Sequence record: NZ_CP028351.1
DNA: 64,000 bases
DNA from: a plasmid
Strand: one strand, 5' to 3'
The stretch's first letter is position 1, and every line of letters starts with the position of its first letter. The notes under the pieces were generated by a model that was given only the letters and a program-made list of their open reading frames with translations, had not been told where the DNA came from and ran no database searches. The position numbers and the translations under genes were made by a program. Below are positions 4,911-64,000 of the stretch, piece by piece.

Positions 4911-6044
4911 ATGACAGACTTCTTATCGGATGCTGCCCGCCAGGTGTGGCGTCATCTCTTCAGTGTACATATTTTCGCGCCGATCGTGTTCGTGCTGCTC
5001 GGCGTATTCATCATGACCGGCTGCCGCGACAACAATGCTGCCCCGCCAGCCGCCCCACTCCGCCCGGTCAAAACGGTGATTGCCCCGCCGCTCAGCAGCA
5101 ACGCGTCACGCGTGCTGACCGGTGAAATTCGCGCCCATGAAGAGGTTGCACTGGCCTTCAGGCTGGATGGTCGGGTGGTGAGCCGCGCGGTTGAGCTGGG
5201 CGATCGCGTCACCGCCGGGCAACCCCTGGCCGCGCTGGAAAACGATCAGTCACGTAATCAGCTGAGCAGCGCGCAAGCCGATCTCGACAGCGCCCGCGCC
5301 GCCGAACGCGTCGCTGCGCTTAACCTCCATCGGATGCGGCTGCTGATGCCCGGCGGAGCCATCGCCCGCAGCCAGCTGGACAGTGCCGAGGGAGACTGGC
5401 AGAGCGCGCAGTCCCGCCGTCTCAGCAGCGAAGCAGCACTGAAAAATGCCCAGGATAATCTCAGCTGGACCCGGCTCACTGCGCCCGCCGCAGGCCGGAT
5501 TACCGCCCTCCCGGTTCAGCCCGGCCAGGTGGTCAGCGCCGGACAGACTGTGATGACGCTGGCAGCCGGTGATGCACGCGATGCGGTGTTTGATCTGACA
5601 ACGCCTGCTTTGCTGCGAGCTGACGACCAGACTCCGCTGAAGGTGACGCTGCTCGCCGACCCGGACATCCAGGCCAGTGGCACGATACGTGACATCAGCC
5701 CACAGGCCGATTCACAGACCCGTACCTGGCGGCTGCGCATCTCAATGCATCAGCCACCCGAGGCGATGGCACTGGGTGCCACCGTCACCGTCACGCTTCC
5801 CGATCCGCAACCGCCGGTTATCGCCCTGCCCGCCAGCGCCCTGACCCGGTTTGCAGACAAGCCCGCGCTGCTGGTGGTTGATGCGGCATCACGCTTACAG
5901 CTTCGTCCGGTGGTGCTGGCCCGCTTCAGCGCACAGCAAATCTTTGTCTCTGCCGGGATCCGGCCAGGCGAGCGCGTGGTTACCGCCGGTGTCGGCACCC
6001 TGCAGCCCGGTGAAAAAGTGACACTGGCGCAGGAGGGCTCATGA
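4911..6044 (+). CDS. RND efflux periplasmic adaptor (membrane-fusion protein), lipoprotein
   Basis: The lipobox-like LLGVFIMTGC sits near the N-terminus. The coiled-coil and beta-barrel adaptor signature is present. The stop overlaps the downstream permease start. An RBS AAGGA lies upstream. Confidence 0.85.
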   Translation: MTDFLSDAARQVWRHLFSVHIFAPIVFVLLGVFIMTGCRDNNAAPPAAPLRPVKTVIAPPLSSNASRVLTGEIRAHEEVALAFRLDGRVVSRAVELGDRVTAGQPLAALENDQSRNQLSSAQADLDSARAAERVAALNLHRMRLLMPGGAIARSQLDSAEGDWQSAQSRRLSSEAALKNAQDNLSWTRLTAPAAGRITALPVQPGQVVSAGQTVMTLAAGDARDAVFDLTTPALLRADDQTPLKVTLLADPDIQASGTIRDISPQADSQTRTWRLRISMHQPPEAMALGATVTVTLPDPQPPVIALPASALTRFADKPALLVVDAASRLQLRPVVLARFSAQQIFVSAGIRPGERVVTAGVGTLQPGEKVTLAQEGS

Positions 6045-23924: not shown

Positions 23925-24200
23925 GGTTAACCTGCCTGTGATACAGAGCGATCATTTGTACTTTCCCTGGCCTTGAGCATAAGTGACTGCTTTTGGGTTA
24001 GTTAAAGCCTGGCACAAAGAATGATAATGGAAAGAAAAAAGCAGAAATATGCCGCGATGTGAAGATAACTTGGCGCTAAAATCGGATAAGCGATGCGGCA
24101 GATAAAAAGAGGATCAAAGGGTGAATAGCAGTGAAATCTCTGTTTTCAGATGAGTCAAAGAGAAGGGATCGGGCAGTGAGCTCGCCTGACGTGCCTAATG

Positions 24201-25654: not shown

Positions 25655-27784
25655 TCAGGGGGATGTGACATCGTAACCGCTGGCAACAGCGGGCACAGAA
25701 TGCTCCTCGCCGTACAGCATCGCTTCAAAGTCCGCCGGTGTCAGTGGCCGGCACAGGCCATTGCCCTGCATAATGTGACATCCGGCTGACGTGACAAAGG
25801 CGATCTGCTCTTTGTCTTCAACCCCTTCAGCAGCCACCCGAATACCCAGACTTTTGCCGAGTGCGGTGATAGATCGGAACATCATTCGCACCCGCATGCT
25901 GGAGTTCAGCTCGTGCGTCAGCGACTTGTCGATTTTGAAACCTGCCACAAAGCTGTGGCGCAGCAGATTAATGGCCCCCAGCGTGCGTCCGTAATGATCG
26001 ATGACAAATGAGGCACCGGTCCGGCGCACCGCTTCAACCTGAACCGGCATATCCTGCACCAGCACAGCCAGCAGAGGCTCATCCACTTCCAGCTCAACAA
26101 AACCCGCATCGCCGCCGGCACTCTCGCGTATAACGTTTTCCAGGCTGTTCCCTGTCAGCTGACGCGGAAACAGATTGATGCTGACACGAAGCTCAGGCGA
26201 TCGCACCTGCCACTGCCGGACCTGTGCCAGAGCACTGCGGATAATCCATTCCCCCAGCGTTACGGAAAGCGGGCTTTTAACCAGCATGCTGATGAAGTCG
26301 GCAGGCAACAGCAATCCGCGTGTCGGATGCTGCCAGCGTACCAGCGTCTCGCAGCCAGCCAGTTTTCCGCTTTCCACGTCGAAGCGGGGCTGATAGTAAA
26401 GTGTGAACTGCTGCTGCCGCACCGCCGTTTCCAGTTCGCGTTCAAAACGGCGGCGCTGCTGCTCCGCTTCACGAAACGCAGGCATAAACAGGATACTGCA
26501 GCCTTTGCCTGAGGCTTTGGCACGGTAGAGTGCCAGATCAGCAGCGGACATCACCGCAGAGGGATCGCGACCGTGCTCCGGGTAGGAAGCGATGCCGGTA
26601 CTGGCACCAACCACAACCGGCGAGTCGTGGTAGCGGAACGGCGTCTGTACGGCTGCAATCAGTTTTTCCGCCGTAATCGCTGCCTCAGCGCTGCCGCCCG
26701 CCAGCAGGATCACAAATTCATCACCGCCCAGCCGCGCAGCAGTCACGGCACCGGCACACACTGCACGAATCTGCTCGGCCACGTGACACAGCAGCGCATC
26801 GCCAGCTGCATGTCCCAGCGTATCGTTCACCTCTTTAAAACCATCGAGATCGGTCATCAGTAACGTATAGGGAACACCCGCTTTGGTCAGCTGCCCCACC
26901 TGATGCATGAACGCGCTACGGCTGGCGAGTCGTGTCAGCATATCCAGAGAAGCCAGCTCACAGAGCCGCGCCTCACTTTCATAGCGGGCTGTAACGTCGC
27001 GGATGATCATGCCCACCAGCCGCTCGCCCTCTTCACGCCAGCCCGAAAATGAGACTTCTGCCGGGAATTCACGGCCGTCACGCGTGACGCCCCATATCTG
27101 CAACGAACGAGGATGAGAGATAGCTGCTTCGTCTGAGGTAATCCGGGCCAGCTCGTTACGGTAGTCAGTCTGGCAGCGCGCCGGGATCAGCTCGCTGACA
27201 TACTGACCTCTCATCTCCTCTGCGCTGTAGCCGAAGAGAGCAGTGGCGGCCGGATTCCAGAAGGTGATGCCGCGCCGCAGGTCGGTACAGACAATGGCGT
27301 CGGGTGAGGTGGATGAGATTGCCTGAAGACGCTGCTGACTGGTGTAGCGCAGTAACTCCAGACGATGCATCTCCATGCGATCCATCACCAGCGCGGCAAT
27401 ATCGGTCAGATGCGTCCGATCCTCTGCAGTCAGCGGCTCGCGCGGATGACTGTCGGTCAGGCAGACGGTGCCAATGTGATGACCATCCGGCGTCGAGAGC
27501 GGGATCCCGGCATAAAAGCGGATAAAGGGGTAGCCATGAACCAGCGGACTGTCGCGGAAGCGGGGATCTTTCAGCGTATCGGGCACACACAGGATATCGC
27601 CCTGCGCCAGCGTATGGTGGCAGAAGGCGACGTTGCGCGACGTACCGGAAATGTTCAGACCGTAACGGGAAGCGAAAAACTGTCGCTTCTCATCGATTAG
27701 CGATACAAAAGCCACCGGTACGCGGAACAGTCGCGCAGCAAGCGTGGTAAGGCGATCCAGCGCATCGGTCGGCGGTGAATCCAT
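25655..27784 (-). CDS. GAF-PAS-GGDEF-EAL c-di-GMP turnover protein
   Basis: N-terminal GAF domain, then a PAS domain (IVCTDLRRGITFWNPAAT). The GGDEF domain has an intact RLGGDEF site. The EAL domain has ETLVRW...DDFGTGYS-like motifs. Confidence 0.85.
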   Translation of the reverse strand: MDSPPTDALDRLTTLAARLFRVPVAFVSLIDEKRQFFASRYGLNISGTSRNVAFCHHTLAQGDILCVPDTLKDPRFRDSPLVHGYPFIRFYAGIPLSTPDGHHIGTVCLTDSHPREPLTAEDRTHLTDIAALVMDRMEMHRLELLRYTSQQRLQAISSTSPDAIVCTDLRRGITFWNPAATALFGYSAEEMRGQYVSELIPARCQTDYRNELARITSDEAAISHPRSLQIWGVTRDGREFPAEVSFSGWREEGERLVGMIIRDVTARYESEARLCELASLDMLTRLASRSAFMHQVGQLTKAGVPYTLLMTDLDGFKEVNDTLGHAAGDALLCHVAEQIRAVCAGAVTAARLGGDEFVILLAGGSAEAAITAEKLIAAVQTPFRYHDSPVVVGASTGIASYPEHGRDPSAVMSAADLALYRAKASGKGCSILFMPAFREAEQQRRRFERELETAVRQQQFTLYYQPRFDVESGKLAGCETLVRWQHPTRGLLLPADFISMLVKSPLSVTLGEWIIRSALAQVRQWQVRSPELRVSINLFPRQLTGNSLENVIRESAGGDAGFVELEVDEPLLAVLVQDMPVQVEAVRRTGASFVIDHYGRTLGAINLLRHSFVAGFKIDKSLTHELNSSMRVRMMFRSITALGKSLGIRVAAEGVEDKEQIAFVTSAGCHIMQGNGLCRPLTPADFEAMLYGEEHSVPAVASGYDVTSP

Positions 27785-28210
27785 CAGATGATACTGCTTA
27801 AGTGCATCAAGGCGAGCCGCCTCGGCATCATGATAAACTGGGCGTTTCAGCGTAAATCCCCTCTGATGTTATCTGCTGTGGCCGGCATGACGCAGCATGA
27901 AGAGGACACGTTCAATCAGACAGGACGCGCAGAACTGGCTGCCGACCCGCTACCGGAAGAAAGGCCCGTCAGTGAACTCTGCAACAATAACCAGCTGCAA
28001 CGAGTCCGATAATACCGGCATCGCAGACAGCGGGATGCCGGTTAATACGTTATGCCGGGCAGTGCGGTCGTGACGGTTCGGCGGTTAATAGCGGACCATG
28101 CCAGGACAATCCTGCCAGAGCAGATAAGATGCGCGAATTAATGCGCTTCGCTTAGCTCTTTATATCGGCCTGAAATACGTTAACTTCAGGGGAAAAAGCG
28201 GCAGAACGCC

Positions 28211-28450
28211 TTACTTTTTAAGCTTTGGAACCAGTTCGTAGTGCGGATGCTCTCCCGCCAGCAGCATCAGCAGTTCATATTCTCCCTGGCTGAGCAGCGC
28301 AGGGTTTTTGGATGCTTCTTTGGTCTGCCAGACGCGCTGGCTAAGGTCGAAACGTTCGGCTGCAATCTCCTGCGAAAGACCCGCCGCAAGGCGCAGCTCA
28401 CGTACGTTATGCTGGACGGCAACCGGCCGCTGTAAAATCTGATTTCCCAT
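28211..28450 (-). CDS. Small (79 aa) Xre-like HTH protein, paralog of 58400..58639
   Basis: NVRELRLAAGLSQEIAAERFDLSQRVWQTKEA...LLSQGEYELLMLLAG. It is about 80% identical to the second copy in this window. The ATG at 28450 is chosen. Confidence 0.6.
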   Translation of the reverse strand: MGNQILQRPVAVQHNVRELRLAAGLSQEIAAERFDLSQRVWQTKEASKNPALLSQGEYELLMLLAGEHPHYELVPKLKK

Positions 28451-51332: not shown

Positions 51333-51436
51333 CCACTGTAGCGAGTAAAACAACCACTGTATCGAGATAAATAACCACTATGGCAAGTAGATTAACCGCT
51401 ATAGTGAGTGCTAGTATCCACTGTATTGAGTAACAG
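51333..51436 (+). repeat. Iteron set 2: five direct repeats (21-22 bp period) immediately upstream of repA
   Basis: Repeat starts at 51333, 51354, 51375, 51396 and 51418. The repeat is the same family as set 1. Confidence 0.8.
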
Positions 51437-51470
51437 CGGCTCTCGCCTGTTCACATTACGGATCTTCCTA

Positions 51471-52544
51471 ATGCCAAGAAAAGAACCAGATATCCTGAAC
51501 ATAGCTGATGCGTTTAGCGAAACAGACAAGCGTACAGGCGAAGTTGTTACTCTAACGCCCAACAGTAATAACACCGTGCAGCCAGTCGCGTTGATGCGTC
51601 TCGGCTTGTTTGTTCCAACGCTGAAATCCACAGCGCGCAGTCAGAAAAACCAGATGAATGCGATGGATGTGACTCAGGATCTGAAACAGTTATCTCTGGT
51701 CAGATCGGAAGGGTATGACAACATCAAGATTCTGGGTGCCCGGCTGGATATGGATAATGATTTTAAGACCTGGGTTGGGATCATTCGCGCATTCGCCACG
51801 CATGAGTGTCTGGGAGACACGGTAACGCTCTCGTTCGTAGAATTTGCAAAACTCTGCGGCATACCTTCTGCGCGCCTCTCATCGAAGCTCAGGAGCCGTC
51901 TGGACGCTTCGCTGACGCGGATTGCGTCTAATACCCTGACTTTTACCAGCAAGGGCGGAGAGAACTACACAACGCATCTGGTGCAGTCCGCCAAATACAG
52001 CGTCAAAAAGGACACGGTGACCTTACAGGCCGATCCCAAAATCTTTGAGCTATATCAGTTCGACAGAAAGGTTCTGCTGCAGCTTAAGGCTATTAACGAG
52101 CTGGCACGCAAAGAATCCGCTCAGGCGCTTTATACGTTCATTGAAAGCCTTCCGCCTAAACCTGCACCAATATCCATGGCACGCCTGCGTGCAAGGCTTA
52201 ACCTTACGTCGCGCGTGATCACCCAGAATGCGACAGTCAGGAAAGCGATGGAGCAGTTAAAAGAGATTGGTTATCTCGATTATACCGAGACCCGCCGCGG
52301 CTCTTCCGTGTACTTCTGGGTCCATTATCGTCACCCCAAACTGCGCCCGGCCGAACTGCCGCTCAGCAAGGCAGACCTGATCGATGATGAGATGGACGAG
52401 TTTGACGATATGGACAACGATCTCACTATTATTGATGTCAATCTGCCTGAACCGGTGGGTGAAGATGAAAGCAGTGAACTTGTCATGGTATCGCGTGAGG
52501 AAAAAGAGTTACTGAATAAAATCAGGAAACAGAAAAAGCGTTAG
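51471..52544 (+). CDS. repA: RepFIB/P1-type plasmid replication initiator RepA
   Basis: [53 protein letters not shown]... is colinear with RepFIB RepA ([70 protein letters not shown]). The start is at 51471; the ORF track begins upstream inside the iterons. Confidence 0.9.
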
Positions 52545-52593
52545 AGGCCTGTTCACCACACAGTTCATGGCTGACCCATCCTGCAGCCTGCTA

Positions 52594-53813
52594 ACCACTA
52601 TAGCGAGAGATGGGCTGTTTAAGGGTATCTGACAGCCCTAACCACTATAGCGAGTTAGATTACTCGCTATAGTGGTTAGCCCCTTTCCAAAAGAGCATCA
52701 ATATCCAGATGCGCCTGCCTGAAAACATCCTGCAATTTGCTGTGGTCTTCCATTCCGCCTCCCGGACCCAGAGGGTGCATTGGACTTCACAAGAGATCTA
52801 CTTCCCGTAGTGGTTAGCCAGTACGTGGCTTCACTGTAAACGCTGCAATAAGGCGTTATCGTGTTTATCACTCTCTATAGTGGTTAGTCAGGTCTGGTTA
52901 ACAGAATGCGGATTCTCCTCCCAATGCCATCTGACGTGTTCCGCAGGCGATATTCAGCTCTTCGGTTTTACTCGCTACAGTGGTTATCGCCATTCTGAAA
53001 TGGCTATCTCATGCTGGTTTGCCTCATTCTGCCCAAAAGATTTACACGCTACAGTGGTTTTCTGGAGATTTATTGGCTGATGCGTTCAGATAATGATCAG
53101 GTGACAGACCCGGTTCTTACAACATTCTCGCTACAGTGGTTATTTTTTTGGATTGAGGGGCGATATTACTCGCTATAGTGGTTAGCAGTATCATTTTACT
53201 CTGCCTGTTAATGACATTTAGCTAGTTAAAGTGAGTGCTTACTATCAATATTTATCTCTCATAGCATGATGAGAACAAAAAATTAGCATAGCAGGTAAGG
53301 TCAGCCAGGCACTCGCTACAGTGGTTGTGTTACAGGATGAGCAGAATGATTTCGTCAACAGAACAAAGCTATTTTAGCGAATAACAGCGCAAAACAGGGC
53401 AGGGCTATCACTCCGTTCCTGCTACATGCACCTCCTCACACGACCTTTTCACTCGCTATAGTGGTTATGCCGCATGGAAGTCGTGCGTGGTGCACTGTTG
53501 AGCATAGATAATCTTAGGCTCCTCTTTCTGGATCACTTACTCGATACAGTGGTTATCATCTGAGAACAGAGGTGAGCAGGTACTCGCTACAGTGGTTATC
53601 TGAGCGTTTATCGACTGCCTGAGTGATTTATCGGCATAATCCGGATGAATATTGCGCAACATACTGGCTACAGTGGTTGTCATAAACGCTTCGGGCGCAC
53701 CTTTGCTCGCTATAGTGGATATTTGTCACATTCTATACCCAGATAGTGCAGTTCAGTCTCAGATTTACTTCCTATAGTGGTTAACCTGTAAGCGTTACTC
53801 GCTATAGTGGTTA
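52594..53813. repeat. Downstream iteron field: about 17 copies (2 direct, 15 inverted; ACTCGCTAYAGTGGTTA) over 1.2 kb
   Basis: Direct copies at 52594 and 52642. A head-to-head palindrome spans 52642..52675. Inverted copies lie near 52802, 52869, 52968, 53042, 53124, 53166, 53310, 53448, 53537, 53581, 53661, 53704, 53765 and 53795. Confidence 0.8.
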
Positions 53814-54027
53814 TCAGAAAATGTATGCCGGAAATGCGTCAGAAACTCATTCAAAAATGCAGTATCGCGTCCAGGATTTACAAAAGAAGCTTAGAATGCG
53901 CAGATAAATAAAGGGGAGTAGGGAGGGCCTGTTAATCATGCCTTTTCCTGAGAGTCGGCACGGCCATAAATGAAAAAAGCGGCCGCTCGCTGGCGTACCG
54001 CTTTAAAATTATTAAGACCGCGTACGG

Positions 54028-55215
54028 TTACATCGCTTCGCGATATTCCGGCCAGGCGACCGATTGGGCCTCATAGCGGCCCGCAGATGCGAACAGCGTA
54101 CCCTGGAAATTGATCACACCTGCAGCTTCCAGCCACATCCACTCTTCAGCCTGTACGATCCCAGCCGCGATAACGGTGATCTCCAGCGCTGAGCAGCACT
54201 TGATGATTGCCTGCACCACCGCCTGCTTTGGCCCACTGCGATGAACGTCGCGGGTGATACCGGCATCGATACGGATACGGTCGGGCTGAATATGAGTCAG
54301 CAATGACAATCCCGCGGAGCCGTCTCCAAAATTGTCGATAGACAGGCTGATCCCGAACGCTTTTAACGCGCGTACGGCTTCAGAGAACGCATCCAGCTGT
54401 GAAATCACGCCGGTTTCACTCACACCAATAACCACCTGCTCCGGCACCAGACCCGCCTGCTGAATGGCTGCCACAATGTGCTCAACAGCGTCGGGTATGA
54501 CAACCAGCGTCATTGGCAGCAGACTCACGTAGAGCGTCATACCATCGGGACAAACCAGGCCAGCGTGGGCAAAGGTTTTCTTCACGGTTTCCAGATCGTC
54601 AACATAAAGCCGGTCGCCGGAAATTTCACCGGTCAGCGCCGGACGCAGGGTGACAGCTTCAATGGCGGTCACCTGACGCGCCAGTGGATCGACCACCGGC
54701 CGGAAGCTCACCCCTTCTGTCTCCGGACGGGAATCCGGCACATTAGTGTGCTCTGAAATAAACTCCCAGTAACCTGGCGGCAGAACCTCGTAGTAGTTTT
54801 CTTTCTCGCGTGACTCAACAAAAGTACGCAGGAATTGCAGTGCCCGATCATCATAGGTCAGGCGATATTTAGACGTACCTTTGTCCAGCACCGCCTGCAG
54901 CAGTGATGAGCGATCGTGTTCGCGCAGATCAAACAGCGACATGCCCGCATTACCAAAACGTCGGGAAGGCGCATAGTCGCGCATTAACTCCACCACATTA
55001 TGATGCCGGCGATCGGCACAGATTCGCTGATAAACGGCCCGAATGCCCGCTTCCGGGCCTTCAAGTAACTGGAAGAAATGGGTGCCGTTGAATAACAGGA
55101 TACCGGTTACACCGTGGGTAGTATTGATTTTGCTGGCGTTGTCGACCATTTCCGGTAGGGTTCTGACCGGAAAGTCATCTGAAATATGGCTGCGATAGAT
55201 TATGGTGGTAAGCAT
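54028..55215 (-). CDS. BLUF-EAL blue-light sensor protein (BluF/YcgF/BlrP1-like), copy 1
   Basis: N-terminal BLUF domain (MLTTIIYRSHISDD...GVTGILLFNGTHFFQLLEGPE...) plus a C-terminal EAL domain (LLPMTLVVIPDAV...DNFGDGSAG...IKCCSALEITVIAAGI). The start is chosen at MLTT. Confidence 0.85.
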   Translation of the reverse strand: MLTTIIYRSHISDDFPVRTLPEMVDNASKINTTHGVTGILLFNGTHFFQLLEGPEAGIRAVYQRICADRRHHNVVELMRDYAPSRRFGNAGMSLFDLREHDRSSLLQAVLDKGTSKYRLTYDDRALQFLRTFVESREKENYYEVLPPGYWEFISEHTNVPDSRPETEGVSFRPVVDPLARQVTAIEAVTLRPALTGEISGDRLYVDDLETVKKTFAHAGLVCPDGMTLYVSLLPMTLVVIPDAVEHIVAAIQQAGLVPEQVVIGVSETGVISQLDAFSEAVRALKAFGISLSIDNFGDGSAGLSLLTHIQPDRIRIDAGITRDVHRSGPKQAVVQAIIKCCSALEITVIAAGIVQAEEWMWLEAAGVINFQGTLFASAGRYEAQSVAWPEYREAM

Positions 55216-55521
55216 GTGCAGCTCCGTTTTACGTGATTGTTGCGGACACGCTAACATTGATCAAAAAATGTTTCACCTTTACTTGGTTACTGTCGCACAG
55301 ACTGCACCAGAGCAGGTGGCACTAAGCGAAGCGGCAAATTGGCAGATCTGAATTCAGTTACCTTAATGGTAATAATGCTGCTGGATCTCCGCAGAGAAGC
55401 TCATTTCAGTGCATCATAAATAAGACCGCCATCAGGGCGGCCTTGTGGCTTTAGCGGAAAGTTAATCCGCAGCTCAGCAGTGACATAAGCGCAATGTTCA
55501 ACACAGGTATAGCCTGCAGGT

Positions 55522-57306
55522 TTAATGACACTCACCACGCAATTTCCAGTGAAGCCAGTGATCCAGCGCCTCTTCGTTTAATGGCCTGGAATAGAAATAG
55601 CCCTGAGCCTGATCGCAGCCATATTCTGTCAGGGATGTCACGGCGTCAGGACACTCAACGCCTTCTGCCACCACCGTATAGTCCAGCTCTTTGAGCATGG
55701 CGATAATGCTGCGGGCAATAATGCGTGAAGCCGTATCTGAAGAGAGTTCACTGATCAGAGAGCGATCCAGCTTGATAACATCCAGCGGCATACGGCGCAG
55801 ATAGCTGATATTGCTGTAGCCTGCGCCAAAATCATCGAGTGAAATCGTGAATCCCCGTTCTCTGAGCATCTCCAGTCCGCGAAGGGCGGTGGGGCTTTCC
55901 AGGATACGTTCTGTCTCCAGGCATTCGATGCCCAGCAGCGAAGTCGGAAGCTTAGACTTCAGCATTTTGCTTTCCAGCGCGGATGCAAATCCCTCGCATG
56001 CAAAATCGCGTACGCTGACGTTGATGGTCAGTGGCAACTGAATACAGTTATTACGCAGTCGTCTGAGACGTTCAACGGCCTGATCGATAATCCAGGCGGT
56101 GAGCACCGAGAGCAGATCGGTCTGCTCAGCCAGCGGAATAAAGGCGGCAGGTGAAAGTTCCCCTCTGCTGGGATGTCGCCAGCGGATGAGCGCTTCCAGG
56201 CCCACCGGTTTGCCACTCTGCAGGCAAATCTTAGGCTGATAGACCATATAAAGCCCGATGTTATCGCGCAAAGCGGTTTTCAGATCGGTCATCAGCAGGA
56301 AATCTTCTGAGCGCTGTGTTTCCGCCTCAATATCAAAACGCTGAGAGGGCAGTCCGCGCCCGACAGCTTCATTCAGCGCGCTGACCGCGCGGCGTAACAC
56401 TTCCGACGCTGACATGCTGCCGGCAACAAAGGCCGCCTCACCGGTATGAGGCGTCAGTGCAACTGACAGCCCCTCATCCATGTCTGCACTGATACCTTCC
56501 AGGCGACCGGCGACCCAGGCTGCACTCAGTCTGCTATCAGCACGGGTCAGAATGGCAAACCGCCCTGTGGCCACGGTGTAGATCATCTCACCCACCGCCG
56601 GGCGCAGGCGCAGCGGCAGCAGGGTAGCCATATCCTTCAGCAGGCTTTCAACCGGATTCATTCCCATGGTGCGGGCCAGTTCATAAGCACGTGACATGTC
56701 GATGCAATCAATCAGCACCAGACGGCGTGGCGTGGTGTCACCCGCCACGGCCAGATATTGTAAATCACGTATCAGGCGCTGACGGTTAGGCAATCCGGTC
56801 ACCGGATCGCAAAAACCAGCGGAATGCCAGGCTTCAAGGAAGGACATGACCAGCGTGGAGAGCAGCGTTAATGTCGTCACCTGCTCAACGGCAAACGCAT
56901 GCGGCTCGGTGTCGGTAACACAGAGCGTGCCCAGAATAATGCCGTCGCGGGTTTTAAGAGGCACACCGGCATAAAAGCGAATAAAAGGTGAGCCGGTGAT
57001 CAGCGGATGCGTCACGAAACGCGCATCGTGATAGGTATCCGGGACGATCACTGCGCTGTCGCTGTCTACCACATGACGGCAGAGTGAATCCCCACGCGTT
57101 GAACGTTGCAGATCAAAGTTATGTGACGCCCGTACGGTCTGGAACTCGTCATCCAGCACAGAGATAAAGCTTCCCGGGATGCCCAGGGCCTGACTGGCTA
57201 ACCGGACAAATTTTCGCAGAACGTCATCGCGACTTTCGTCAGGGTCACGCAGTGCCTGCAAAGCACGACTTCGGCGTTCATTGTCGCCGTTTAGATTCTT
57301 GAGCAT
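55522..57306 (-). CDS. GAF - degenerate GGDEF - EAL protein, paralog of 30596..32377
   Basis: About 75% identical to the first copy along the whole length. The GGDEF site is again replaced by TVATGRFA. The EAL motif is EALIRW. Confidence 0.85.
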   Translation of the reverse strand: MLKNLNGDNERRSRALQALRDPDESRDDVLRKFVRLASQALGIPGSFISVLDDEFQTVRASHNFDLQRSTRGDSLCRHVVDSDSAVIVPDTYHDARFVTHPLITGSPFIRFYAGVPLKTRDGIILGTLCVTDTEPHAFAVEQVTTLTLLSTLVMSFLEAWHSAGFCDPVTGLPNRQRLIRDLQYLAVAGDTTPRRLVLIDCIDMSRAYELARTMGMNPVESLLKDMATLLPLRLRPAVGEMIYTVATGRFAILTRADSRLSAAWVAGRLEGISADMDEGLSVALTPHTGEAAFVAGSMSASEVLRRAVSALNEAVGRGLPSQRFDIEAETQRSEDFLLMTDLKTALRDNIGLYMVYQPKICLQSGKPVGLEALIRWRHPSRGELSPAAFIPLAEQTDLLSVLTAWIIDQAVERLRRLRNNCIQLPLTINVSVRDFACEGFASALESKMLKSKLPTSLLGIECLETERILESPTALRGLEMLRERGFTISLDDFGAGYSNISYLRRMPLDVIKLDRSLISELSSDTASRIIARSIIAMLKELDYTVVAEGVECPDAVTSLTEYGCDQAQGYFYSRPLNEEALDHWLHWKLRGECH

Positions 57307-57803
57307 GTGTGTGTAACCTCCGCACCGGCTGATTACGGAGCGAAAAAAGAAAACTGTCCGGAGCGAAATTTCATTCGGGCGGCAGGAAATATAGCGTATT
57401 TTTTTATTTTCATCCTGATGATAAGGGACTATGCGGCGGGTGTCTCTTAATATTTTCTTTAACGCATAAAGGCGATATTTACGATTCGAAAATTTAATCG
57501 AAGCGGTGCCTGATTATTTACCTTTTATATTTTCAGCCCGGCGCAGCAGCGCTGTTAAGGTTTATTCCCGGGCAGAAAATCAATAAGCATTCAGGATGGT
57601 TACTATTATTTCTAAGTTGGTTTTCAGGGGGAACAGTCATGATGCCGGAGGCAGGATCGTTATGCGCAGACTACTCAGCGGGATAACCTCTTCAAACACA
57701 ACGCAAAAGCCGGGCAGAGATGACCTGTCAGCGTGCTCCCGGCTGATGCAGGCCAATCCACCGCAAGGCCGGCGTTAACACAGCGTTTCTGTCAGCAATC
57801 AGC

Positions 57804-58028
57804 TTAACGTTTGATGCCATTCAGAGATTGAGCCGGGCGGCGTGGGGGCGGGTTCTGTTCCAGCCAGTCACGCACCTGTTCGGTCCGCGCGCCGCTTTCT
57901 CGGATCGCGCGTGTCAGCCTTTCCTGGGTTGTCCTCAGCTCCTGAGTCCAGTAGGTGATTTGCCACTGCTCACGAATTTCCACATGCGACAGATCGTCGG
58001 GTGAGCGACGCTGGATGGGATTTTTCAT
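57804..58028 (-). CDS. DUF3606-like small protein (74 aa)
   Basis: The central segment EIREQWQITYWTQELRTTQERLTRAIRESGARTEQVRDWL resembles DUF3606. The assignment is from memory. Confidence 0.45.
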   Translation of the reverse strand: MKNPIQRRSPDDLSHVEIREQWQITYWTQELRTTQERLTRAIRESGARTEQVRDWLEQNPPPRRPAQSLNGIKR

Positions 58029-58399
58029 TTATTATCCTCCTCTGGTTTCAATGATGCAGCCTGAACAGGAACCTCAGGCTAAACATCTATCCTGATGAAG
58101 AAAGCGGCATTGAGGTAGCGGATTAATCCCTGAATGGTCCTTAAGTCAAATAACAGGATAATTCCTGGCGGAAGAAATAAAGCATTCTAAGGAAATAGGA
58201 AAAGTACTGCGAGGACGAAATATGCCGCTTCGCTTACAGAAAAATTTCGCTTAATTGTTGAATCTGAAATTTGACATTTAAGCAAAATAGTCAATTATTC
58301 TCTGGTCTTTTCGCTGTGAGCGCTTTCAGGCCGCTTCGCTTTAATTGCTGGCGAAGCGCTGTGCTTTTGCGTTTTTAATCATGTTGAAGGAGTGTTTGT

Positions 58400-58639
58400 T
58401 TGGTTAATCGTCCCCCCAAGCCGCCTGTGGTTGTCCAGAGTAATGTACGTGAACTTCGTCTTGCCGCTGGCCTCTCACAACAGAGCGCCGCTGAGCGTTT
58501 TGATCTTAGCCTGAGAGTCTGGCAAACCAAAGAAGCAGCAGGTAATCCGACGCTACTCAGTCAGGGTGAATATGAACTGCTGTTATTACTGGCGGGTTGC
58601 CATCCCCATTTCACTCTTGCGCCTCAGAGCAAAAAGTAA
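58400..58639 (+). CDS. Small (79 aa) Xre-like HTH protein, paralog of 28211..28450
   Basis: TTG start at 58400, with AAGGAG 7 nt upstream. The sequence NVRELRLAAGLSQQSAAERFDLSLRVWQTKEA...LLSQGEYELLLLLAG closely matches the first copy. Confidence 0.6.
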   Translation: MVNRPPKPPVVVQSNVRELRLAAGLSQQSAAERFDLSLRVWQTKEAAGNPTLLSQGEYELLLLLAGCHPHFTLAPQSKK

Positions 58640-58813
58640 CGGCTCAGTTAATACCCTGAAATGTATTTCTGTGATAACCGGCCGTACAGTCACGTTAAAA
58701 AAAATCTATTAAGCTACTTGAAAGCGGACAATTGATCCCTACTTTAGCGATGATCGGGAATATCATACCGGTCAGATGAACTTTTGGATGAACCTGTTCA
58801 GGAGATTATCACC

Positions 58814-59302
58814 ATGTCTGTACAACAGTTTTCTGTTTTTCCTTCGCTGACGGATTCTGTCTTTTCAGACCGTTTTAGCCGTATCGATAAATTGTTCAGC
58901 CAGCTGACTGGCGACAAGCCGGTGACGTCAGTTCCCGCTTACGATCTGCAGCGGGTTGAGGATAACCGCTACGCGCTGACCGTCAGCGTACCCGGCTGGA
59001 AAGAGCATGAGCTGGAGATAGAACTACGTGGCGGCCGGCTTTGCGTGGCAGGTCACCGGGATGATGCATCCGGGGAGTCGTCCGGCGAAGCTCGGCAGGA
59101 GAACAGCAGCTGGATCCATCGCGGCATTTCCCGGCACGATTTCCAGCTAAGCTTTTCGATTCCGGAGCACATGAAGGTGACCGGCGCCAGCCTGGCGGAC
59201 GGTTTACTCAGCATTGATTTGATCCAGGAAATACCGGAGAGCGAGAAACCGCGTCGTATCCCGATTGCGATCGGCGGACCACGAACGCTGGAACATCAGT
59301 AA
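58814..59302 (+). CDS. Hsp20/alpha-crystallin small heat-shock protein (IbpA/B-like)
   Basis: The alpha-crystallin domain reads AYDLQRVEDNRYALTVSVPGWKEHELEIEL....ADGLLSIDL. The start is at ATG 58814 with GGAGA 8 nt upstream. Confidence 0.8.
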   Translation: MSVQQFSVFPSLTDSVFSDRFSRIDKLFSQLTGDKPVTSVPAYDLQRVEDNRYALTVSVPGWKEHELEIELRGGRLCVAGHRDDASGESSGEARQENSSWIHRGISRHDFQLSFSIPEHMKVTGASLADGLLSIDLIQEIPESEKPRRIPIAIGGPRTLEHQ

Positions 59303-59374
59303 TGTGAACAGGGCGGAAGCGGCTAAGGCTGTTTCCGCCCTTTTAACTGCTGGCAGGGAAGAAGGTCAACCGCA

Positions 59375-60139
59375 TCAGGCGCTGGCAGACATCGGGCAGA
59401 TGGGCGATTGCACGCCAGTATTTGTTCCGGTCAGCATAACAGGATCACCCGCCTCCAGGCTGGCGTGAAATGCCGCCTTCATCGATGCACTGATACCATC
59501 GCCACACCACATCAGATGATGCTCAAAGCGGCGATGCGCTACAGCGGGAACACCGCATGCGGCCGCTGCGACTTCAACCCGAAAGCCCTGTCCGTTGAGC
59601 CGTATCGCCTCCATCCAGATCTCGGTTTCATCCGTTACGCTGACCGCTTCAAGAAACAGTGGTACGGTGCTGCGTCGCCGTGCGGCCAGCGACAGGCGCT
59701 CCCACTGGCCGATGACGGCACTATGAAAACGCTGCTGACGCTGGGCTGCTCCTTCGCTGAGGTCAGAACGCAGCCAGAGGTTGAGCGGCCGCAGATAGCG
59801 ATTAACATAGTCATCACCACAGTAGTCGGTATTCATCATCTGCAGTTCACGTTCAACATCTGCGTCCGGATTGTTCGCCAGCAGTTGCAACATATCCTCT
59901 TCCCGGCAGGCCCAGCCGCCGGGAAGCGTGACGCTGGGCCAGTTAAGGGCAGCATGGATATCAAACAGCGTATGGCCTCCTGATGTCATTTCACGAACGC
60001 AGAGCGCGCGCGTGAGCTGCTGATCTGAATAGCCAGCAGGGCCAGGCGGTGTGATCAGCCCGGCCCGGCGCCAGCGACGCAGGGTTTCAGGAAGAACACC
60101 GACGAGACCACATACGGTGTCGGTAGAGTGGTGAGGCAT
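59375..60139 (-). CDS. MerR-family transcriptional regulator with a C-terminal domain of about 180 aa (BluR/YcgE-like architecture)
   Basis: N-terminal MerR HTH (VCGLVGVLPETLRRWRRAGLITPPGPAGYSDQQL). It sits between the Hsp20 gene and the csbD / BLUF-EAL genes. Confidence 0.65.
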   Translation of the reverse strand: MPHHSTDTVCGLVGVLPETLRRWRRAGLITPPGPAGYSDQQLTRALCVREMTSGGHTLFDIHAALNWPSVTLPGGWACREEDMLQLLANNPDADVERELQMMNTDYCGDDYVNRYLRPLNLWLRSDLSEGAAQRQQRFHSAVIGQWERLSLAARRRSTVPLFLEAVSVTDETEIWMEAIRLNGQGFRVEVAAAACGVPAVAHRRFEHHLMWCGDGISASMKAAFHASLEAGDPVMLTGTNTGVQSPICPMSASA

Positions 60140-60340
60140 AGTTGATATCCGGGAAGCGTTGCAATCCCATGATCGGGAAAGATGGCCGCATTATGCGCGC
60201 CAGGAATAAATAAAGAAACAATCATTTCCATAATCTGTCCCTGCAACAGGTACAGAGGTGTCAGAGAGTAAATGAACAGACGGAGAGAAGGGCTGACGGG
60301 CAGGTGCCGGGCGCAGAGACGCCCGGCGATTAAGAACGCT

Positions 60341-60550
60341 TTACCAGTGGTACTTGTTGGAATCTTCCCACTCTTTTACTTCTTTTTCGGCACGGTCTTT
60401 CTCGTAGCCGTAGCGTTCCTGAATTTTACCGACCAGCTGATCGCGCTTCCCTTCTACAACGGTCATATCATCATCCGTAAGATCACCCCATTTTTCCTTG
60501 ACCTTACCTTTGAACTGCTTCCAGTTGCCGCCAATGCGATCTTCGTTCAT
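60341..60550 (-). CDS. CsbD-family stress protein (YjbJ-like)
   Basis: MNEDRIGGNWKQFKGKVKEKWGDLTDDDMTVVEGKRDQLVGKIQERYGYEKDRAEKEV is near-identical in pattern to E. coli YjbJ. The start is chosen at MNED. Confidence 0.8.
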   Translation of the reverse strand: MNEDRIGGNWKQFKGKVKEKWGDLTDDDMTVVEGKRDQLVGKIQERYGYEKDRAEKEVKEWEDSNKYHW

Positions 60551-60723
60551 GGTGATTCTCCCAATTCCGGTTGTTATCCAGGGACCTGATGAATATCTGT
60601 CCTGCCAGAAGGCTGTCAGATGGATCAAGCATGGCACAGCTTTTGCTTTTTGCAGCGAAGCGGTGTGAGCCGCTTCAAACTATGAGCAAAAGGGCAGGCA
60701 GGGAGGTATTTCTGCCGGGGAAA

Positions 60724-61938
60724 TCACGGGCGTCGTGCAGGCCAGCTAACAGCAGGCAGAGCATTAAGGGCAGGGCGGGCAAACATAAAGCCCTGGTAAT
60801 AACGGACCCCGGCACCTTCCAGCCAGAGCCACTCTTCAATTTTCTCCACGCCTTCCGCAATGACCGTAATTTCCAGCGCCTGGCAGCATTTAAGGATGGC
60901 CAGCACAATCGCCTGACGCGGGCCGCTGCGATGAATATCGGTGATCAGCTTGCGATCGATCTTAACTTTGTCGGGCTGGAAATCGGCGAGCAGCGACAGG
61001 CCTGCGAAACCGGCACCGAAATCATCAAGGGCCAGGCTGATTCCGGCTGCTTTCAGCTGGCGCACAGCAAACTGAAAGGCATCGAAGCGGGAGATGACCT
61101 CATCTTCAGTCACCTCAACCACCACCTGCTCAGGGCGCAATCCCTGTTGCCTGATCTGCTGAATGAGATGTTCAACCGCATCGTCGATCACCACCAGCGA
61201 CATGGGCAGCAGGTTGACGGAGAGCGTCTGCTCCCGCAGGCCGAGATGTCTGGCCAGCTGAAACGCATAGGTTTTGGAATGGAGATCCGCCTGATAACGC
61301 TCGCCTTCCGGCAGCTGTGAAAAGTAGTCTGCGGGTGGTGCGCCCTGAAGACCGCGTATCAGGGCTTCGCAGGAGACAATCCGGCGATTCGCAGCGTCTA
61401 CGATAGGCTGAAGCGCAAATTCACAGCGCTGATCCGCTGCAGGCTGCAGGGGTGGCCGGGCACTGACGGTAAGAGGCGCAGTCAGTGTCCACTCGCTGGC
61501 AGGGGCAATCCCGATAAACGTTTCTTTATCTCTGCCTTCGACAAAAGAACGCAAAAACTTCACTACCCGGTCATGTCTGATTCGCTCATCAGTCAGGGTG
61601 ACCCGTTTAAGCAGGGCTTCTACAACGGTATGTTTCTGATAGTCACGTAAATCAAACAAGGCCATACCGGCATGACCAAATCGACGTGCAGGGGCGTAAT
61701 CTCGCATCAGTTCAATCAGATTATAATGCCGATCATCCCGACTAATACGCTGAAAAACCGTGTGAACATTATCAACGCTCCCTTCAAGCACCTGAAAAAA
61801 GTGCTGCCCGTCATAGAGCAGTATCCCGGTGACTTCAGCTTCAGCGTTTTTAATACTGGCGCGCTCCACCAGCGCTTTAAGCTTCTCTGGCGAGACCGAA
61901 CCCGCAAGCTGGCTACGGTAAATCAGGGTGGAGAGCAT
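60724..61938 (-). CDS. BLUF-EAL blue-light sensor protein, copy 2
   Basis: BLUF domain (MLSTLIYRSQLAG...VTGILLYDGQHFFQVLEGS) plus an EAL domain that contains EALIRG and DDFGAGFAG. The ATG at 61938 is preferred over the GTG at 61950. Confidence 0.85.
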   Translation of the reverse strand: MLSTLIYRSQLAGSVSPEKLKALVERASIKNAEAEVTGILLYDGQHFFQVLEGSVDNVHTVFQRISRDDRHYNLIELMRDYAPARRFGHAGMALFDLRDYQKHTVVEALLKRVTLTDERIRHDRVVKFLRSFVEGRDKETFIGIAPASEWTLTAPLTVSARPPLQPAADQRCEFALQPIVDAANRRIVSCEALIRGLQGAPPADYFSQLPEGERYQADLHSKTYAFQLARHLGLREQTLSVNLLPMSLVVIDDAVEHLIQQIRQQGLRPEQVVVEVTEDEVISRFDAFQFAVRQLKAAGISLALDDFGAGFAGLSLLADFQPDKVKIDRKLITDIHRSGPRQAIVLAILKCCQALEITVIAEGVEKIEEWLWLEGAGVRYYQGFMFARPALNALPAVSWPARRP

Positions 61939-62882
61939 AAGCAGACTCACATGACAGGAAGTTACTGATTAACCATACCACATAAATATTGATGGTTAAG
62001 GGCATAACTGCGGCCAATATATCGTTCTGCTTGCGGCATCAAACCGGGCATAGGGCAGGGTAATACTTCAGGCATTAAGCACACACATGTCAGATGGCGT
62101 CTCAATAATAAACCGGCGAATAAGCTGAGATAAAAGAAAAGCCCCCGCAAAAGCGGGGGCGAAGAGCGGATATAGCGCATTATTATAACGTCACGACATC
62201 CCTGGTGAGGCGCCGGTCATTCGGGTTGTGCCTGATTATTACGCGCTTTATATTCTCCTTACCATGTTGTTCTGGCGGGATTATTAAGCGGGTAAAAATC
62301 AGTTTCTCTGATATTTCAGAAAATTGTCCTGATATTCAATCAACTGGTTTGGGCTTTTGATAATATCAGCACAGCCATTGAATTATCAGGTTACAAATCC
62401 ACCACTTTTCCAGTCGCAATCTTAACGTCTTCAGCAGGTTTAACCGGTACGCGTAAACATTACTCGCCTGCAGAGTTAACTGCGTGTCGACATCTGCGGT
62501 AACTGAAAAAGTGCCCCCCTGTAAAAGGGGGCAAGGGTAGGAGTCAGATCACTCTGAAACAGAAGTGGATTTCGTTGCAGAGCCATTTAAAGATAGGGCA
62601 AAACCGCTGTTATTTCCGCTGCGGTTAACCCTTTTTTTAGTTAGATATCAAATAATTAAAATGCTTACAATGTAAAATAATGAGCAGGATCAGTCAGTTA
62701 ATCAGATATGAAAACGATTACTAAGATTAGGATTAAAGTCCTGATCTGCCTGCGGCTACGGCTATTAATGGCCATAATTCCGGCATCCAAAGCATGTGAA
62801 TGCAGACTTGACCGCCTGACGGATTGATTATACTGTTCATAAACACAGTACTATTTCAAACAAAAGCCGTTGTGGAGTCAAT

Positions 62883-63119
62883 GTGATGTCACAGGATGAT
62901 GAGATCTGGCATGCTTTCAGAGAGGCGACAAGACAGGATGATGCCGGTCAGTTTACCGTCAGCACCCGGGATTTTGTGGCGGAGCTGCAACAGCGCAACG
63001 CACCTCATACACTGCGAGCCGCAAATACCTGGATCGAGATGCATATCACTACCTTCAGTGATATTTCTGTTGAGCCTGGTGAGTGTCGGTTGTTTCAGAT
63101 GCCTGCGGCGCGCAGTTAA
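62883..63119 (+). CDS. Hypothetical 78-aa protein
   Basis: The ORF is surrounded by AT-rich non-coding DNA. No family is recognised. Confidence 0.3.
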   Translation: MMSQDDEIWHAFREATRQDDAGQFTVSTRDFVAELQQRNAPHTLRAANTWIEMHITTFSDISVEPGECRLFQMPAARS

Positions 63120-63198
63120 CACGCGCCGCAGAACGGAAATAACACTATAGTGCAGGTATTTCAGCCACGCTGCTCTGGCGGATGCTGACTGAATGGCT

Positions 63199-63528
63199 TC
63201 AGAGCCTGGACGACTGACGACCCATATCTGACCGATCCTGATAGTTAGGATTAGCAGGATAGCTCTTCTCGCAGGCCATGCGTGTCAGGTTGAGCGCAAC
63301 TTTACGCTTTTTAAGCTTTAACTTTGGCAGCCACTCTTTGAACTGCGCCGTCAGCGACGCTGCCTGCTGTTCTGTTGTGACGCGACAGATAAACAGCTTG
63401 CTCTTCGTCTGGCGGCTGACATCAATGGCGTAGATTTCAAAGCCAGCACTGCACTCTTCATATTCAACATCCGTAAACTGCATGTGTGGCCAAAGACCGA
63501 TTCTGGTTTCAAATGTGGCTAAATCCAT
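63199..63528 (-). CDS. Hypothetical 109-aa protein
   Basis: An isolated ORF in an AT-rich flank. No family is recognised. Confidence 0.3.
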   Translation of the reverse strand: MDLATFETRIGLWPHMQFTDVEYEECSAGFEIYAIDVSRQTKSKLFICRVTTEQQAASLTAQFKEWLPKLKLKKRKVALNLTRMACEKSYPANPNYQDRSDMGRQSSRL

Positions 63529-64000
63529 AAGAACTACCTTTTTTATTGTAAGCGTTATTGCTGCGCGACAGACTTAAGCCTGGTCGGGCCAGTTAGCATA
63601 GACCACAATCAGCATTCCGCCAGTGAATTCCCTGATTTAATCTGGCCCTGACACAAATAGCTAAAATCTCAGAGATGTACCGCCCGTGTTGCTCCGGGTA
63701 CATTCATATGTATCAGTTAATCTGATGACACGCCCACATTTCGAATGTTCTTTCCCGATAACGCCTGCTATTCGCATCACTGACATTGCAGGATCTGTTG
63801 CCCTCTCTCATGATGCTAACATGCCTCTTAACAACAATTATCGTCAGCGATCCTGTTGAATTAGCAGGCTAATCATCAGATACCAACGGACAGTATCTGA
63901 AGCCTGATCCTGACCATCGGATTATGTAAGCAGGCAGGCAGATTTTCGTCGGCATGCGTTATTAAAGGGGAAAGATGAAAGGGGATCGATAACTGAGAAC

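Follow-up and report, generated by a model that had tools for sequence, protein, structure and literature searches.

BLUF-EAL proteins, blue-light receptors that carry an EAL domain, serve as tools in optogenetics and provide a standard example of how an enzyme becomes a regulator that acts by binding proteins. What, then, does it mean when a single plasmid locus encodes two of them? This question is raised by a 64,000-nucleotide stretch of plasmid DNA (sequence record NZ_CP028351.1; referred to as the window, with positions counted from its first letter), in which eight genes at 54028-61938 form a cluster that we call the island. Two BLUF-EAL genes, copy 1 and copy 2, bracket the genes for a MerR-family regulator, a CsbD protein, a small heat-shock protein (Hsp20), small proteins and a GAF-GGDEF-EAL protein (GAF-EAL for short). 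An earlier note on this DNA had described this arrangement and had proposed that one copy is an active, light-gated phosphodiesterase for cyclic di-GMP (c-di-GMP), while the other acts, like Escherichia coli BluF, on a BluR-like MerR repressor of the adjacent stress genes. A list of open reading frames (ORFs) and profile searches against Pfam and NCBIfam returned the same eight genes, with the same coordinates and domains. With slightly better than even confidence, we read the 8-kb cluster as a signalling module, conserved and vertically maintained on pPag1-type Pantoea plasmids, in which two blue-light receptors have different outputs. The division of labour between an active copy 2 and a dead copy 1 is supported by the sequence comparisons that follow.

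The two BLUF-EAL photoreceptors

Twelve EAL sites were scored across 116 aligned BLUF-EAL proteins (E188, R192, N239, E272, E275, D302, D303, K323, D325, E359, E362 and Q379 in the numbering of BlrP1); apart from the five positions named next, they were read by the roles that they are generally known to have. The roles of Asn239, Asp302, Asp303, Lys323 and Asp325 were taken from PMC3989770. The Tyr, Gln and Met residues of the BLUF photocycle are retained in all 116 proteins. The EAL sites divide them into a fully canonical group of 63 rows (pattern ERNEEDDKDEEQ), which includes copy 2 and all its 18 orthologues; 24 rows of BluF-type proteins with an adjacent BluR gene, which have 3-4 changes (D303H, D325N/S, E359V); E. 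coli BluF, a single row with 5 changes; and 19 rows made up of copy 1 and its orthologues, which read E-x-S-G-E-D-N-R-D-A-V-Q, with 7 changes in 18 rows and 8 in one. Other BLUF-EAL proteins, nine rows, show 1-2 changes.

Copy 2 aligned from end to end with BlrP1 of Klebsiella pneumoniae (PDB 3GFX and others), a light-activated c-di-GMP phosphodiesterase (residues 4-407, 375.4 bits, E = 2.4e-111). It shares with BlrP1 the full length and all scored catalytic, metal, substrate and BLUF residues, that is 12/12 EAL active-site residues, retained likewise in 18/18 orthologues, and the photocycle residues Y7, Q49 and M92. The motif CEALIR, which had drawn attention to this copy, is real. The median ratio of non-synonymous to synonymous substitution rates (dN/dS) of copy 2 was 0.086 (18 orthologues for each copy, median dS about 1.1, pairs with dS < 0.05 excluded). 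Because the active site and the BLUF residues are fully conserved, copy 2 is most likely a BlrP1-like light-gated c-di-GMP phosphodiesterase, as the earlier note had supposed for one of the copies. It had also considered that both EAL domains might lack the catalytic set, which in copy 2 is complete. In such an enzyme, light absorbed by the BLUF flavin would be signalled to the intact EAL dimer and would increase c-di-GMP hydrolysis. Unlike BlrP1, copy 2 belongs to a separate clade on a long branch (1.05-1.21 changes per column in maximum-likelihood trees), is followed downstream by csbD and the MerR gene, and comes from a lineage that was found only on pPag1-type plasmids. A third BLUF-EAL gene of Pantoea, chromosomal and fully canonical, adjoins anmK, slyB-like and slyA-like genes and has no MerR neighbour; this gene looks like the ordinary stand-alone type.

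Copy 1, which is 46% identical to copy 2, was also alignable with BlrP1 from end to end (280.4 bits, E = 2.3e-82), and its EAL domain matched only profile positions 82-234 of 236. Seven of the twelve sites are replaced (R192, N239, E272, D303, K323, E359 and E362), the Gln of the QPIV motif is Arg (Arg or Lys among relatives), and six residues are deleted just C-terminal to the EAL motif, which reads IEAVTLR as first noticed. This dead signature recurs in 19/19 orthologues. The median dN/dS of copy 1 was 0.049, with 0.060 for the EAL part and 0.033 for the N-terminal 150 residues. To judge from the lost metal-binding and water-activating residues, copy 1 cannot hydrolyse c-di-GMP. Since its active site is replaced and its whole length is under strong purifying selection, the protein is non-enzymatic without being in decay. 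By analogy, copy 1 is most likely a light-switched protein-binding regulator, BluF-like in kind. Of the proposal that the other copy is a BluF-like anti-repressor, the dead and selected EAL domain has thus stood, whereas adjacency to MerR and a ycgZ-ymgAB neighbour are both missing from the island.

The loss of catalysis in copy 1 is not confined to the island. A tblastn search with copy 1 matched 170 records of the plasmid collection; 35 have 60-80% identity, and most of these are large plasmids from P. ananatis or other Pantoea. Five loci of copy 1 relatives outside the island were inspected (P. ananatis, P. eucrina, Pantoea sp. SS70, Pantoea sp. Nvir and Duffyella). The first four, at 68-77% identity, have the dead signature in common, so the loss is old within Pantoea; the Duffyella relative (58% identity to copy 1) is canonical save for R192C. 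No MerR/MlrA-like ORF was present within 6-9 kb in any of the five loci (0/5), and in 3/5 of them YcgZ/YmgB-family genes (PF10798) lie 0.8-2.3 kb away, in strain Nvir arranged divergently as in E. coli. In P. ananatis, a GAF-EAL homologue stands on either side of the orthologue, both of them 53% identical to the island protein. The available part of a P. ananatis preprint (10.64898/2026.05.12.724576) lists a plasmid BLUF-EAL gene, p030, and reports no phenotype for this gene. As a separate observation, YmgB/YcgZ-family ORFs also occurred within a few kb of many canonical or near-canonical BLUF-EAL genes that have no MerR neighbour (13 loci), so the association of BLUF-EAL with ymgB genes is wider than the BluF-BluR unit.

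Did copy 1 then share its degeneration with BluF? In maximum-likelihood trees of 53 and 57 rows (rows more than 88% identical removed, quick search), the copy 1 lineage formed a supported clade (100*) beside a Siccibacter protein (Shimodaira-Hasegawa-like approximate likelihood ratio test 90-93) and outside the BluF clade; the BluF/BluR-linked proteins formed a separate supported clade (99*). The approximately unbiased (AU) test rejected neither a joint clade of copy 1 and copy 2 (p = 0.307) nor one of copy 1 and the BluF clade (p = 0.187). Compared with the 5 changed sites of E. coli BluF, copy 1 has 7, of which N239S, E272G and K323R are found in copy 1 only; D325 is kept in copy 1 and lost in all BluF-type proteins (D325S in E. 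coli BluF). Because the sets of replacements differ, the comparison suggests that copy 1 degenerated independently of BluF. Tschowri et al. 2012 (PMC3509220) rank E. coli BluF as the most degenerate variant, and copy 1 goes beyond it.

Conservation of the island on pPag1-type plasmids

The replicon that carries the island is a pPag1-type Pantoea vagans plasmid. Positions 122-8139 of pPag1 from P. vagans C9-1 (NC_014561) matched at 99.2% identity over all 8001 bases, and the island lies next to a replication module with a Rep3/RepB-type initiator and iterons (Table 1), which bears out the plasmid location assumed from the start. A RepB gene also adjoins the island in 4/4 related plasmids inspected. 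In the plasmid collection, 60 records matched the island (57 Pantoea, 2 Duffyella and 1 Kosakonia), and in 49 of these at least 80% of the 8 kb was covered; P. vagans, P. agglomerans, P. alfalfae, P. eucalypti, P. jilinensis and P. deleyi are among those records. Species-representative genomes contained copy 2 orthologues at 11 loci with 79-97% identity, the following matches reaching at most 58%. According to the preprint 10.1101/2024.10.17.618910, pPag1 is a chromid-like, vertically inherited replicon of the species group; in the available part of its main text, a term search found no 'blue', 'phosphodiesterase' or 'c-di-GMP'.

Across 17 related island loci the order and content of the genes are maintained with few exceptions. 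One is merR, which is wholly absent from two loci (L025 and L027, of Pantoea sp. R13S299 and Candidatus Pantoea varia) by a clean deletion between csbD and hsp20, with the remaining genes all there; another is Hsp20, only partially matched at one locus. HTH79, the Xre-like helix-turn-helix (HTH) protein of the island, is 85-100% conserved in 17/17 loci and CsbD 96-100% identical. Identity to P. brenneri is 79% for copy 2, 78% for MerR and 89% for copy 1. The GAF-GGDEF-EAL protein keeps its EALIR, DDFG, KxD and EGVE motifs, its GGDEF score lies below the cut-off, and a GG[DE]EF string was looked for in it and is absent; by these features it is probably an active phosphodiesterase with a degenerate GGDEF domain. 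None of 18 small intergenic ORFs matched a Pfam family at E up to 0.1 (of the PF10798 controls in this search, E. coli YcgZ and AriR were detected and YmgA was missed).

Table 1 Coordinates of the island genes, their control elements and further features. Positions refer to the window unless a locus number (L) is given; numbers of representatives refer to ten species representatives.
Feature	Position	Strand	Remarks
Copy 1, BLUF-EAL, 395 aa	54028-55215	-	Pfam BLUF 84.7 bits, EAL 121.9 bits
GAF-GGDEF-EAL protein, 594 aa	55522-57306	-	GAF 51.9 bits, EAL 221.1 bits, GGDEF 22 bits (cut-off 23.8)
DUF3606 small protein, 74 aa	57804-58028	-	48.2 bits
HTH79, Xre-like HTH protein, 79 aa	58400-58639	+	Weak HTH_31 match, 17.8 bits, below cut-off
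Hsp20/IbpB-like small heat-shock protein, 162 aa	58814-59302	+	54.2 bits; length from RefSeq-annotated start
MerR-family regulator with C-terminal MlrA_C domain, 254 aa	59375-60139	-	MerR_1 27.1 bits (cut-off 21.6), MlrA_C (PF22267) 35.8 bits (cut-off 27)
CsbD/YjbJ-like protein, 69 aa	60341-60550	-	80.6 bits; NCBIfam PRK10428 136.9 bits
Copy 2, BLUF-EAL, 404 aa	60724-61938	-	BLUF 84.7 bits, EAL 175.3 bits
Plasmid replication module	51408-53813	+	Beside copy 1; Rep3/RepB-type initiator gene 51408-52544; eight iterons, 19 nt each, 53124-53813
Box GCCGCTTCGCTTA	55323-55335	-	109 nt upstream of copy 1 start; at 109-110 nt in 8/10 representatives
Terminator-like hairpin between GAF-EAL gene and copy 1	55422-55444	-	From a consensus scan only
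Palindromes GGATTAATCC and CAGGATAATTCCTG	58120-58129 and 58154-58167		Candidate operator sites, 90-140 nt upstream of DUF3606 gene
HTH79 promoter region	58224-58342	+	Boxes 58224-58236 and 58330-58342 flank TTGACA-16-AATTAT promoter 58271-58298
Hsp20 control region	58717-58813	+	Sigma-32-like element, then conserved 5' untranslated region
Box variant ACCGCTTCGCTGC	60652-60664	-	103 nt upstream of csbD start; at 101-103 nt in 6/10 representatives
YsnF/AvaK-type stress gene	22458-23924
One-mismatch box	24087-24099	-	About 163 nt upstream of the YsnF/AvaK-type gene
709-aa EAL-domain gene	25655-27784	-
Two-mismatch box	28142-28154	+	Between HTH79 paralogue and 709-aa EAL gene
HTH79 paralogue	~28211-28450	-	73% identical; directly upstream of 709-aa EAL gene
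Conserved non-coding stretch	62166-62608		Covered by RNA-library contigs
~110-nt non-coding block	~62505-62620	-	Strong minus-strand terminator hairpin 62533-62512
LexA-box-like palindrome TACTGTTCATAAACACAGTA	62831-62850		Perfect; upstream of 78-aa ORF
78-aa ORF	62883-63119
Extra DUF1471 gene	L018:2941-3150, L019:2936-3142, L021:2980-3189	-	In related islands
Chromosomal BLUF-EAL gene	L015:8500-9711	+	Chromosome of Pantoea genome G001
Large-plasmid MerR paralogue	L111:9096-9866	-	Pantoea genome G001

In P. agglomerans, P. eucalypti and a few others, an additional small stress/biofilm gene of the DUF1471 (YdgH/BhsA/McbA-like) type stands between the GAF-EAL gene and copy 1; there is none in the window and none in P. 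deleyi. In RNA libraries of three studies (one plant metatranscriptome run and three from ticks), each of the eight genes was partly represented by contigs. This is a weak hint of island expression, since DNA carry-over is possible and contigs are blind to strand, transcript ends and abundance. The conserved non-coding stretch beyond copy 2 was represented as well. A block of about 110 nt in that area hardly varies among ten species and has a strong terminator hairpin at its end; it was matched by contigs of two of the runs and by no Rfam family, and is a candidate small RNA gene. Further on, a perfect LexA-box-like palindrome, conserved in ten species, precedes a 78-aa ORF that some records annotate as a DNA polymerase V subunit. 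Chemoreceptor genes follow just beyond the island, and the stretch of pPag1 at 128000-167983 (L112; about 14000-53900 of the window) holds genes for an EAL protein, a GGDEF-EAL protein and a diguanylate cyclase, together with a second UvrA, a YsnF/AvaK stress protein, a flagellin gene and a sucrose operon.

The MerR-family regulator and the promoters of the stress genes

The MerR protein exceeds the cut-offs for both of its domains (Table 1), and its N-terminus is nearly invariant among 11 orthologues. In full-length alignments it was 23% identical to E. coli BluR and 22% to MlrA, with 254 aa compared to about 243 aa expected; between BluR and MlrA themselves the identity is 49% (PMC3509220, section 8). 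The NCBIfam model of MlrA gave 32.6 bits at a cut-off of 417. Each of three Pantoea genomes encodes three MlrA_C proteins: a chromosomal MlrA-like protein (about 127 bits to MlrA_C), the island MerR and a paralogue on the large plasmid. The low identities, an MlrA score far below cut-off and the separate chromosomal MlrA-like gene ruled out that the island MerR is an orthologue of BluR or MlrA. From its sequence, the protein is a third, deep branch of the MlrA_C-bearing MlrA/BluR family. The large-plasmid paralogue, 42% identical, is located next to DUF1090, DUF1348 and lumazine synthase (flavin pathway) genes, and no EAL gene is near it.

The position of merR does recall BluR. In 16/18 loci it follows copy 2 in the same orientation at a distance of 460-569 bp, with csbD in between. 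In 24/24 BluF-type loci, the BluR gene likewise follows the BLUF-EAL gene in the same orientation, at 0-254 bp. Copy 1 is 4.1 kb and five genes away from merR in the window, and 4.0-4.6 kb across loci. Because merR is downstream of copy 2, by synteny the BluF position is held by the canonical copy 2 and not by the dead copy 1, and relative to copy 2 the MerR protein stands where BluR would. In BluR and MlrA, the MlrA_C domain contacts EAL domains (PMC3509220); by analogy, an EAL protein, perhaps one of the three in the island, would bind the MerR protein and so control it. A YmgB-family ORF was found in 0/18 island loci, compared to 24/24 BluF-type loci; Pantoea genomes carry 6-10 YmgB-family genes elsewhere and 0 on the pPag1-type contig. 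The sequence upstream of merR is conserved in its own right, and a hairpin with covarying arms lies 3' of csbD.

The stress genes of the island appear to have promoters of their own, to judge from intergenic alignments of ten species representatives. Upstream of hsp20 stands CTTGAAA-N13-CCCTACTT in the window and CTTGAAA-N13/14-CCCTATTT across representatives, a conserved element that we take to resemble sigma-32 promoters. The 5' untranslated region that follows is nearly invariant. A hairpin was predicted for this leader in 8/8 sequences (22 pairs, 1 of them compensatory), a fold that rests on conservation and energy, and in the second predicted hairpin of the leader CUUUU pairs with the AGGAG Shine-Dalgarno sequence, with several G-U pairs. 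The element together with a U-run that pairs with the Shine-Dalgarno sequence is reminiscent of the heat control of Salmonella AgsA and E. coli IbpA, and the leader may be AgsA/fourU-like. Scanned against Rfam with E values up to 1, the region 52500-64000 gave three chance-level matches, none of which lies in the hsp20 leader or the conserved non-coding stretch. Given a conserved sigma-32-like promoter and a Shine-Dalgarno-masking hairpin, Hsp20 looks to be under its own heat control, by a predicted RNA-thermometer-like hairpin, rather than under MerR control.

A different element is common to the promoters of copy 1, csbD and HTH79, namely a box with the core CCGCTTCGCTT and the full 13-mer GCCGCTTCGCTTA. 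Allowing up to one mismatch, it keeps a nearly fixed distance to the starts of copy 1 and csbD in most representatives (Table 1) and occurs once or twice around the strong HTH79 promoter in 10/10. The exact 13-mer is present twice in the window, both times in the island, and if one mismatch is tolerated the count rises to four, of which three lie in island intergenic DNA; the 8-mer core occurs 16 times compared to 5.3 expected. Since the box persists in the merR-less locus of Pantoea sp. R13S299 (L025), the factor that acts on it is probably not MerR. HTH79, whose own promoter is flanked by two box copies, is a candidate for this factor. In this proposal, hsp20 would respond through its heat-shock promoter and leader hairpin, and copy 1, csbD and HTH79 would respond through the CCGCTTCGCTT box.

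Related sites and genes also occur outside the island. A one-mismatch box precedes the YsnF/AvaK-type stress gene, and a two-mismatch box lies between an HTH79 paralogue and the 709-aa EAL gene. The box set may mark a plasmid-wide regulon. As this paralogue adjoins another EAL gene, the pairing of a small HTH gene with an EAL gene recurs on the plasmid. Two conserved palindromes upstream of the DUF3606 gene are candidate operator sites. Three further elements were dropped: a sigma-54-like TGGCAC-N5-TTGC at 60633-60647 (+), which runs antisense to the genes and is conserved in only part of the species; a dyad GAAGCGG-N6-CCGCTTC upstream of csbD, considered as a MerR operator, one arm of which is unconserved; and a box-like site at 57495 upstream of the GAF-EAL gene, found in P. 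vagans only.

Possible circuits and known relatives

Several points weigh against a signalling module with two photoreceptors. Co-location at the replication origin could partly reflect linkage to the plasmid backbone, and further EAL/GGDEF genes exist elsewhere on pPag1. Two species have kept everything else but merR, so the module works without MerR. Copy 2 could have drifted in function on its very long branch despite the intact site, and copy 1, in which E188, D302 and Q379 are kept, could bind c-di-GMP as a receptor rather than act as a light-gated binder. How, then, might the genes be wired? In the circuit drawn by the earlier note, the dead copy 1 would be a light-dependent antagonist of the island MerR, itself a repressor of hsp20, csbD, the HTH gene and DUF3606, as a re-targeted BluF-BluR pathway. 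Copy 1 is indeed degenerate and under selection like BluF, the MerR protein has the MlrA_C domain that contacts EAL domains in BluR and MlrA (PMC3509220), copy 1 relatives in three other Pantoea stand beside ycgZ/ymgB genes, the type of target that BluR has, and the AU test left copy 1 together with the BluF clade unrejected. However, the best trees set copy 1 outside that clade, MerR is encoded 4.1 kb and five genes from copy 1 and near copy 2 instead, it was lost in 2/17 related loci with copy 1 intact, and a MerR-like ORF accompanies none of the five outside relatives within 6-9 kb. Moreover, Hsp20 has its conserved sigma-32-like promoter and thermometer-like hairpin, and a species without MerR retains the box that the promoters of copy 1, csbD and HTH79 share. 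There is more evidence against this wiring than for it, and we consider it unlikely. That copy 2 and MerR are the functional pair seems to us somewhat unlikely: here the intact enzyme would serve as a trigger phosphodiesterase, as PdeR does with MlrA, degrading c-di-GMP and holding or releasing MerR by light, a stage of BluF evolution before degeneration. The one-strand order copy 2, csbD, merR parallels bluF followed by bluR, MlrA_C is present on MerR, both proteins are among the faster-evolving ones of the island (79% and 78% identity to P. brenneri versus 89% for copy 1), and Tschowri et al. derive BluF from an active light-regulated phosphodiesterase that acted on a duplicate of MlrA (PMC3509220). 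On the other side, csbD, the covarying hairpin after it and the conserved merR upstream sequence suggest separate transcription units, and the two species that lost MerR retained a canonical copy 2.

A partner for copy 1 could also be sought on its other flank. The GAF-EAL gene is followed immediately by copy 1 in every island locus, the P. ananatis orthologue of copy 1 is found between two GAF-EAL homologues (53% each), and EAL activity depends on the dimer interface (PMC3989770); mixed EAL dimers with the GAF-GGDEF-EAL phosphodiesterase, or with another EAL enzyme, would make the activity of these light-dependent. We regard this as quite improbable: near the P. eucrina, SS70 and Nvir relatives there is no GAF-EAL homologue, the weak EAL matches there being the BLUF-EAL gene itself, and in the island copy 1 is set apart from the GAF-EAL gene by a terminator-like hairpin and by a promoter with the box. 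It is also quite unlikely that there is no circuit at all and that independent stress and c-di-GMP genes are kept together solely by their position beside the replication origin. Each gene does seem to own a conserved upstream region, pPag1 has EAL, GGDEF-EAL and diguanylate cyclase genes as well as stress genes elsewhere, and it is described as vertically inherited (preprint 10.1101/2024.10.17.618910). Against this stand the box at fixed distance that three island promoters have in common, the recurrence of BLUF-EAL genes with MlrA_C regulators in 24/24 BluF-type loci, and the fact that order and content are kept among species with saturated synonymous sites (dS about 1.1). A more far-reaching idea, which we rate as very unlikely, is that the island holds both ends of the path proposed for BluF. 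Copy 2 would be a trigger enzyme coupled to an MlrA-like regulator; copy 1 would have degenerated independently, left its regulator and taken other partners (the GAF-EAL enzyme, other MlrA_C proteins or ymgB-type modules); and HTH79 would bind the CCGCTTCGCTT box and thereby link copy 1, csbD and further stress genes of the plasmid in one regulon. If this were true, a plasmid circuit of a leaf-dwelling bacterium would integrate light, temperature and c-di-GMP.

The conserved module that we favour can be compared with several known systems. The E. coli BluF(YcgF)-BluR(YcgE)-YcgZ/YmgAB pathway has in common with it a selected BLUF-EAL protein with a dead EAL domain, an MlrA_C MerR-type regulator whose gene follows a BLUF-EAL gene in the same orientation, and small stress genes nearby. 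It differs in that the dead copy of the island is not the neighbour of the regulator, which is only distantly related to BluR, and in that the island is plasmid-borne and lacks ycgZ/ymgAB. As in the E. coli PdeR(YciR)-MlrA-DgcM system, a regulator of the MlrA family is encoded together with an active EAL protein that has a degenerate or accessory GGDEF domain. The sensor domain in the island is GAF instead of PAS, a diguanylate cyclase partner is missing from the island, and the GAF-GGDEF-EAL protein scored 206 bits with NCBIfam PRK10060, far below the cut-off of 782 bits. The closest precedent is a pair of paralogues in Klebsiella and Enterobacter sp. 638: as in Pantoea, one canonical and one degenerate BLUF-EAL protein and an MlrA/BluR-like regulator occur in the same organism, a pattern described in 2012 (PMC3509220). 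There, the degenerate copy is located beside BluR and ycgZ-ymgAB and the active one in another chromosomal context (PMC3509220). In the Pantoea island, by contrast, both paralogues share one 8-kb plasmid locus, the canonical one is near the regulator, and a third copy is chromosomal.

What is new compared to the 2012 pattern is a shared, plasmid-borne locus with a third-branch regulator by the canonical copy, a copy 1 that is more degenerate, no ycgZ-ymgAB and general-stress neighbours. A literature search, with subscription journals outside its coverage, found no paper describing this Pantoea island. The surprise for the specialist is moderate, since the general pattern has been known since 2012. 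P. vagans and P. agglomerans inhabit leaves and flowers, where both light and temperature cycle strongly, and C9-1 is a biocontrol strain. With an intact and a very degenerate paralogue, a third-branch regulator and natural MerR-deletion variants, the locus offers one tractable plasmid module. It lets one ask which features of an EAL domain set catalysis and which set partner binding, and whether coupling to a regulator preceded the loss of catalysis.

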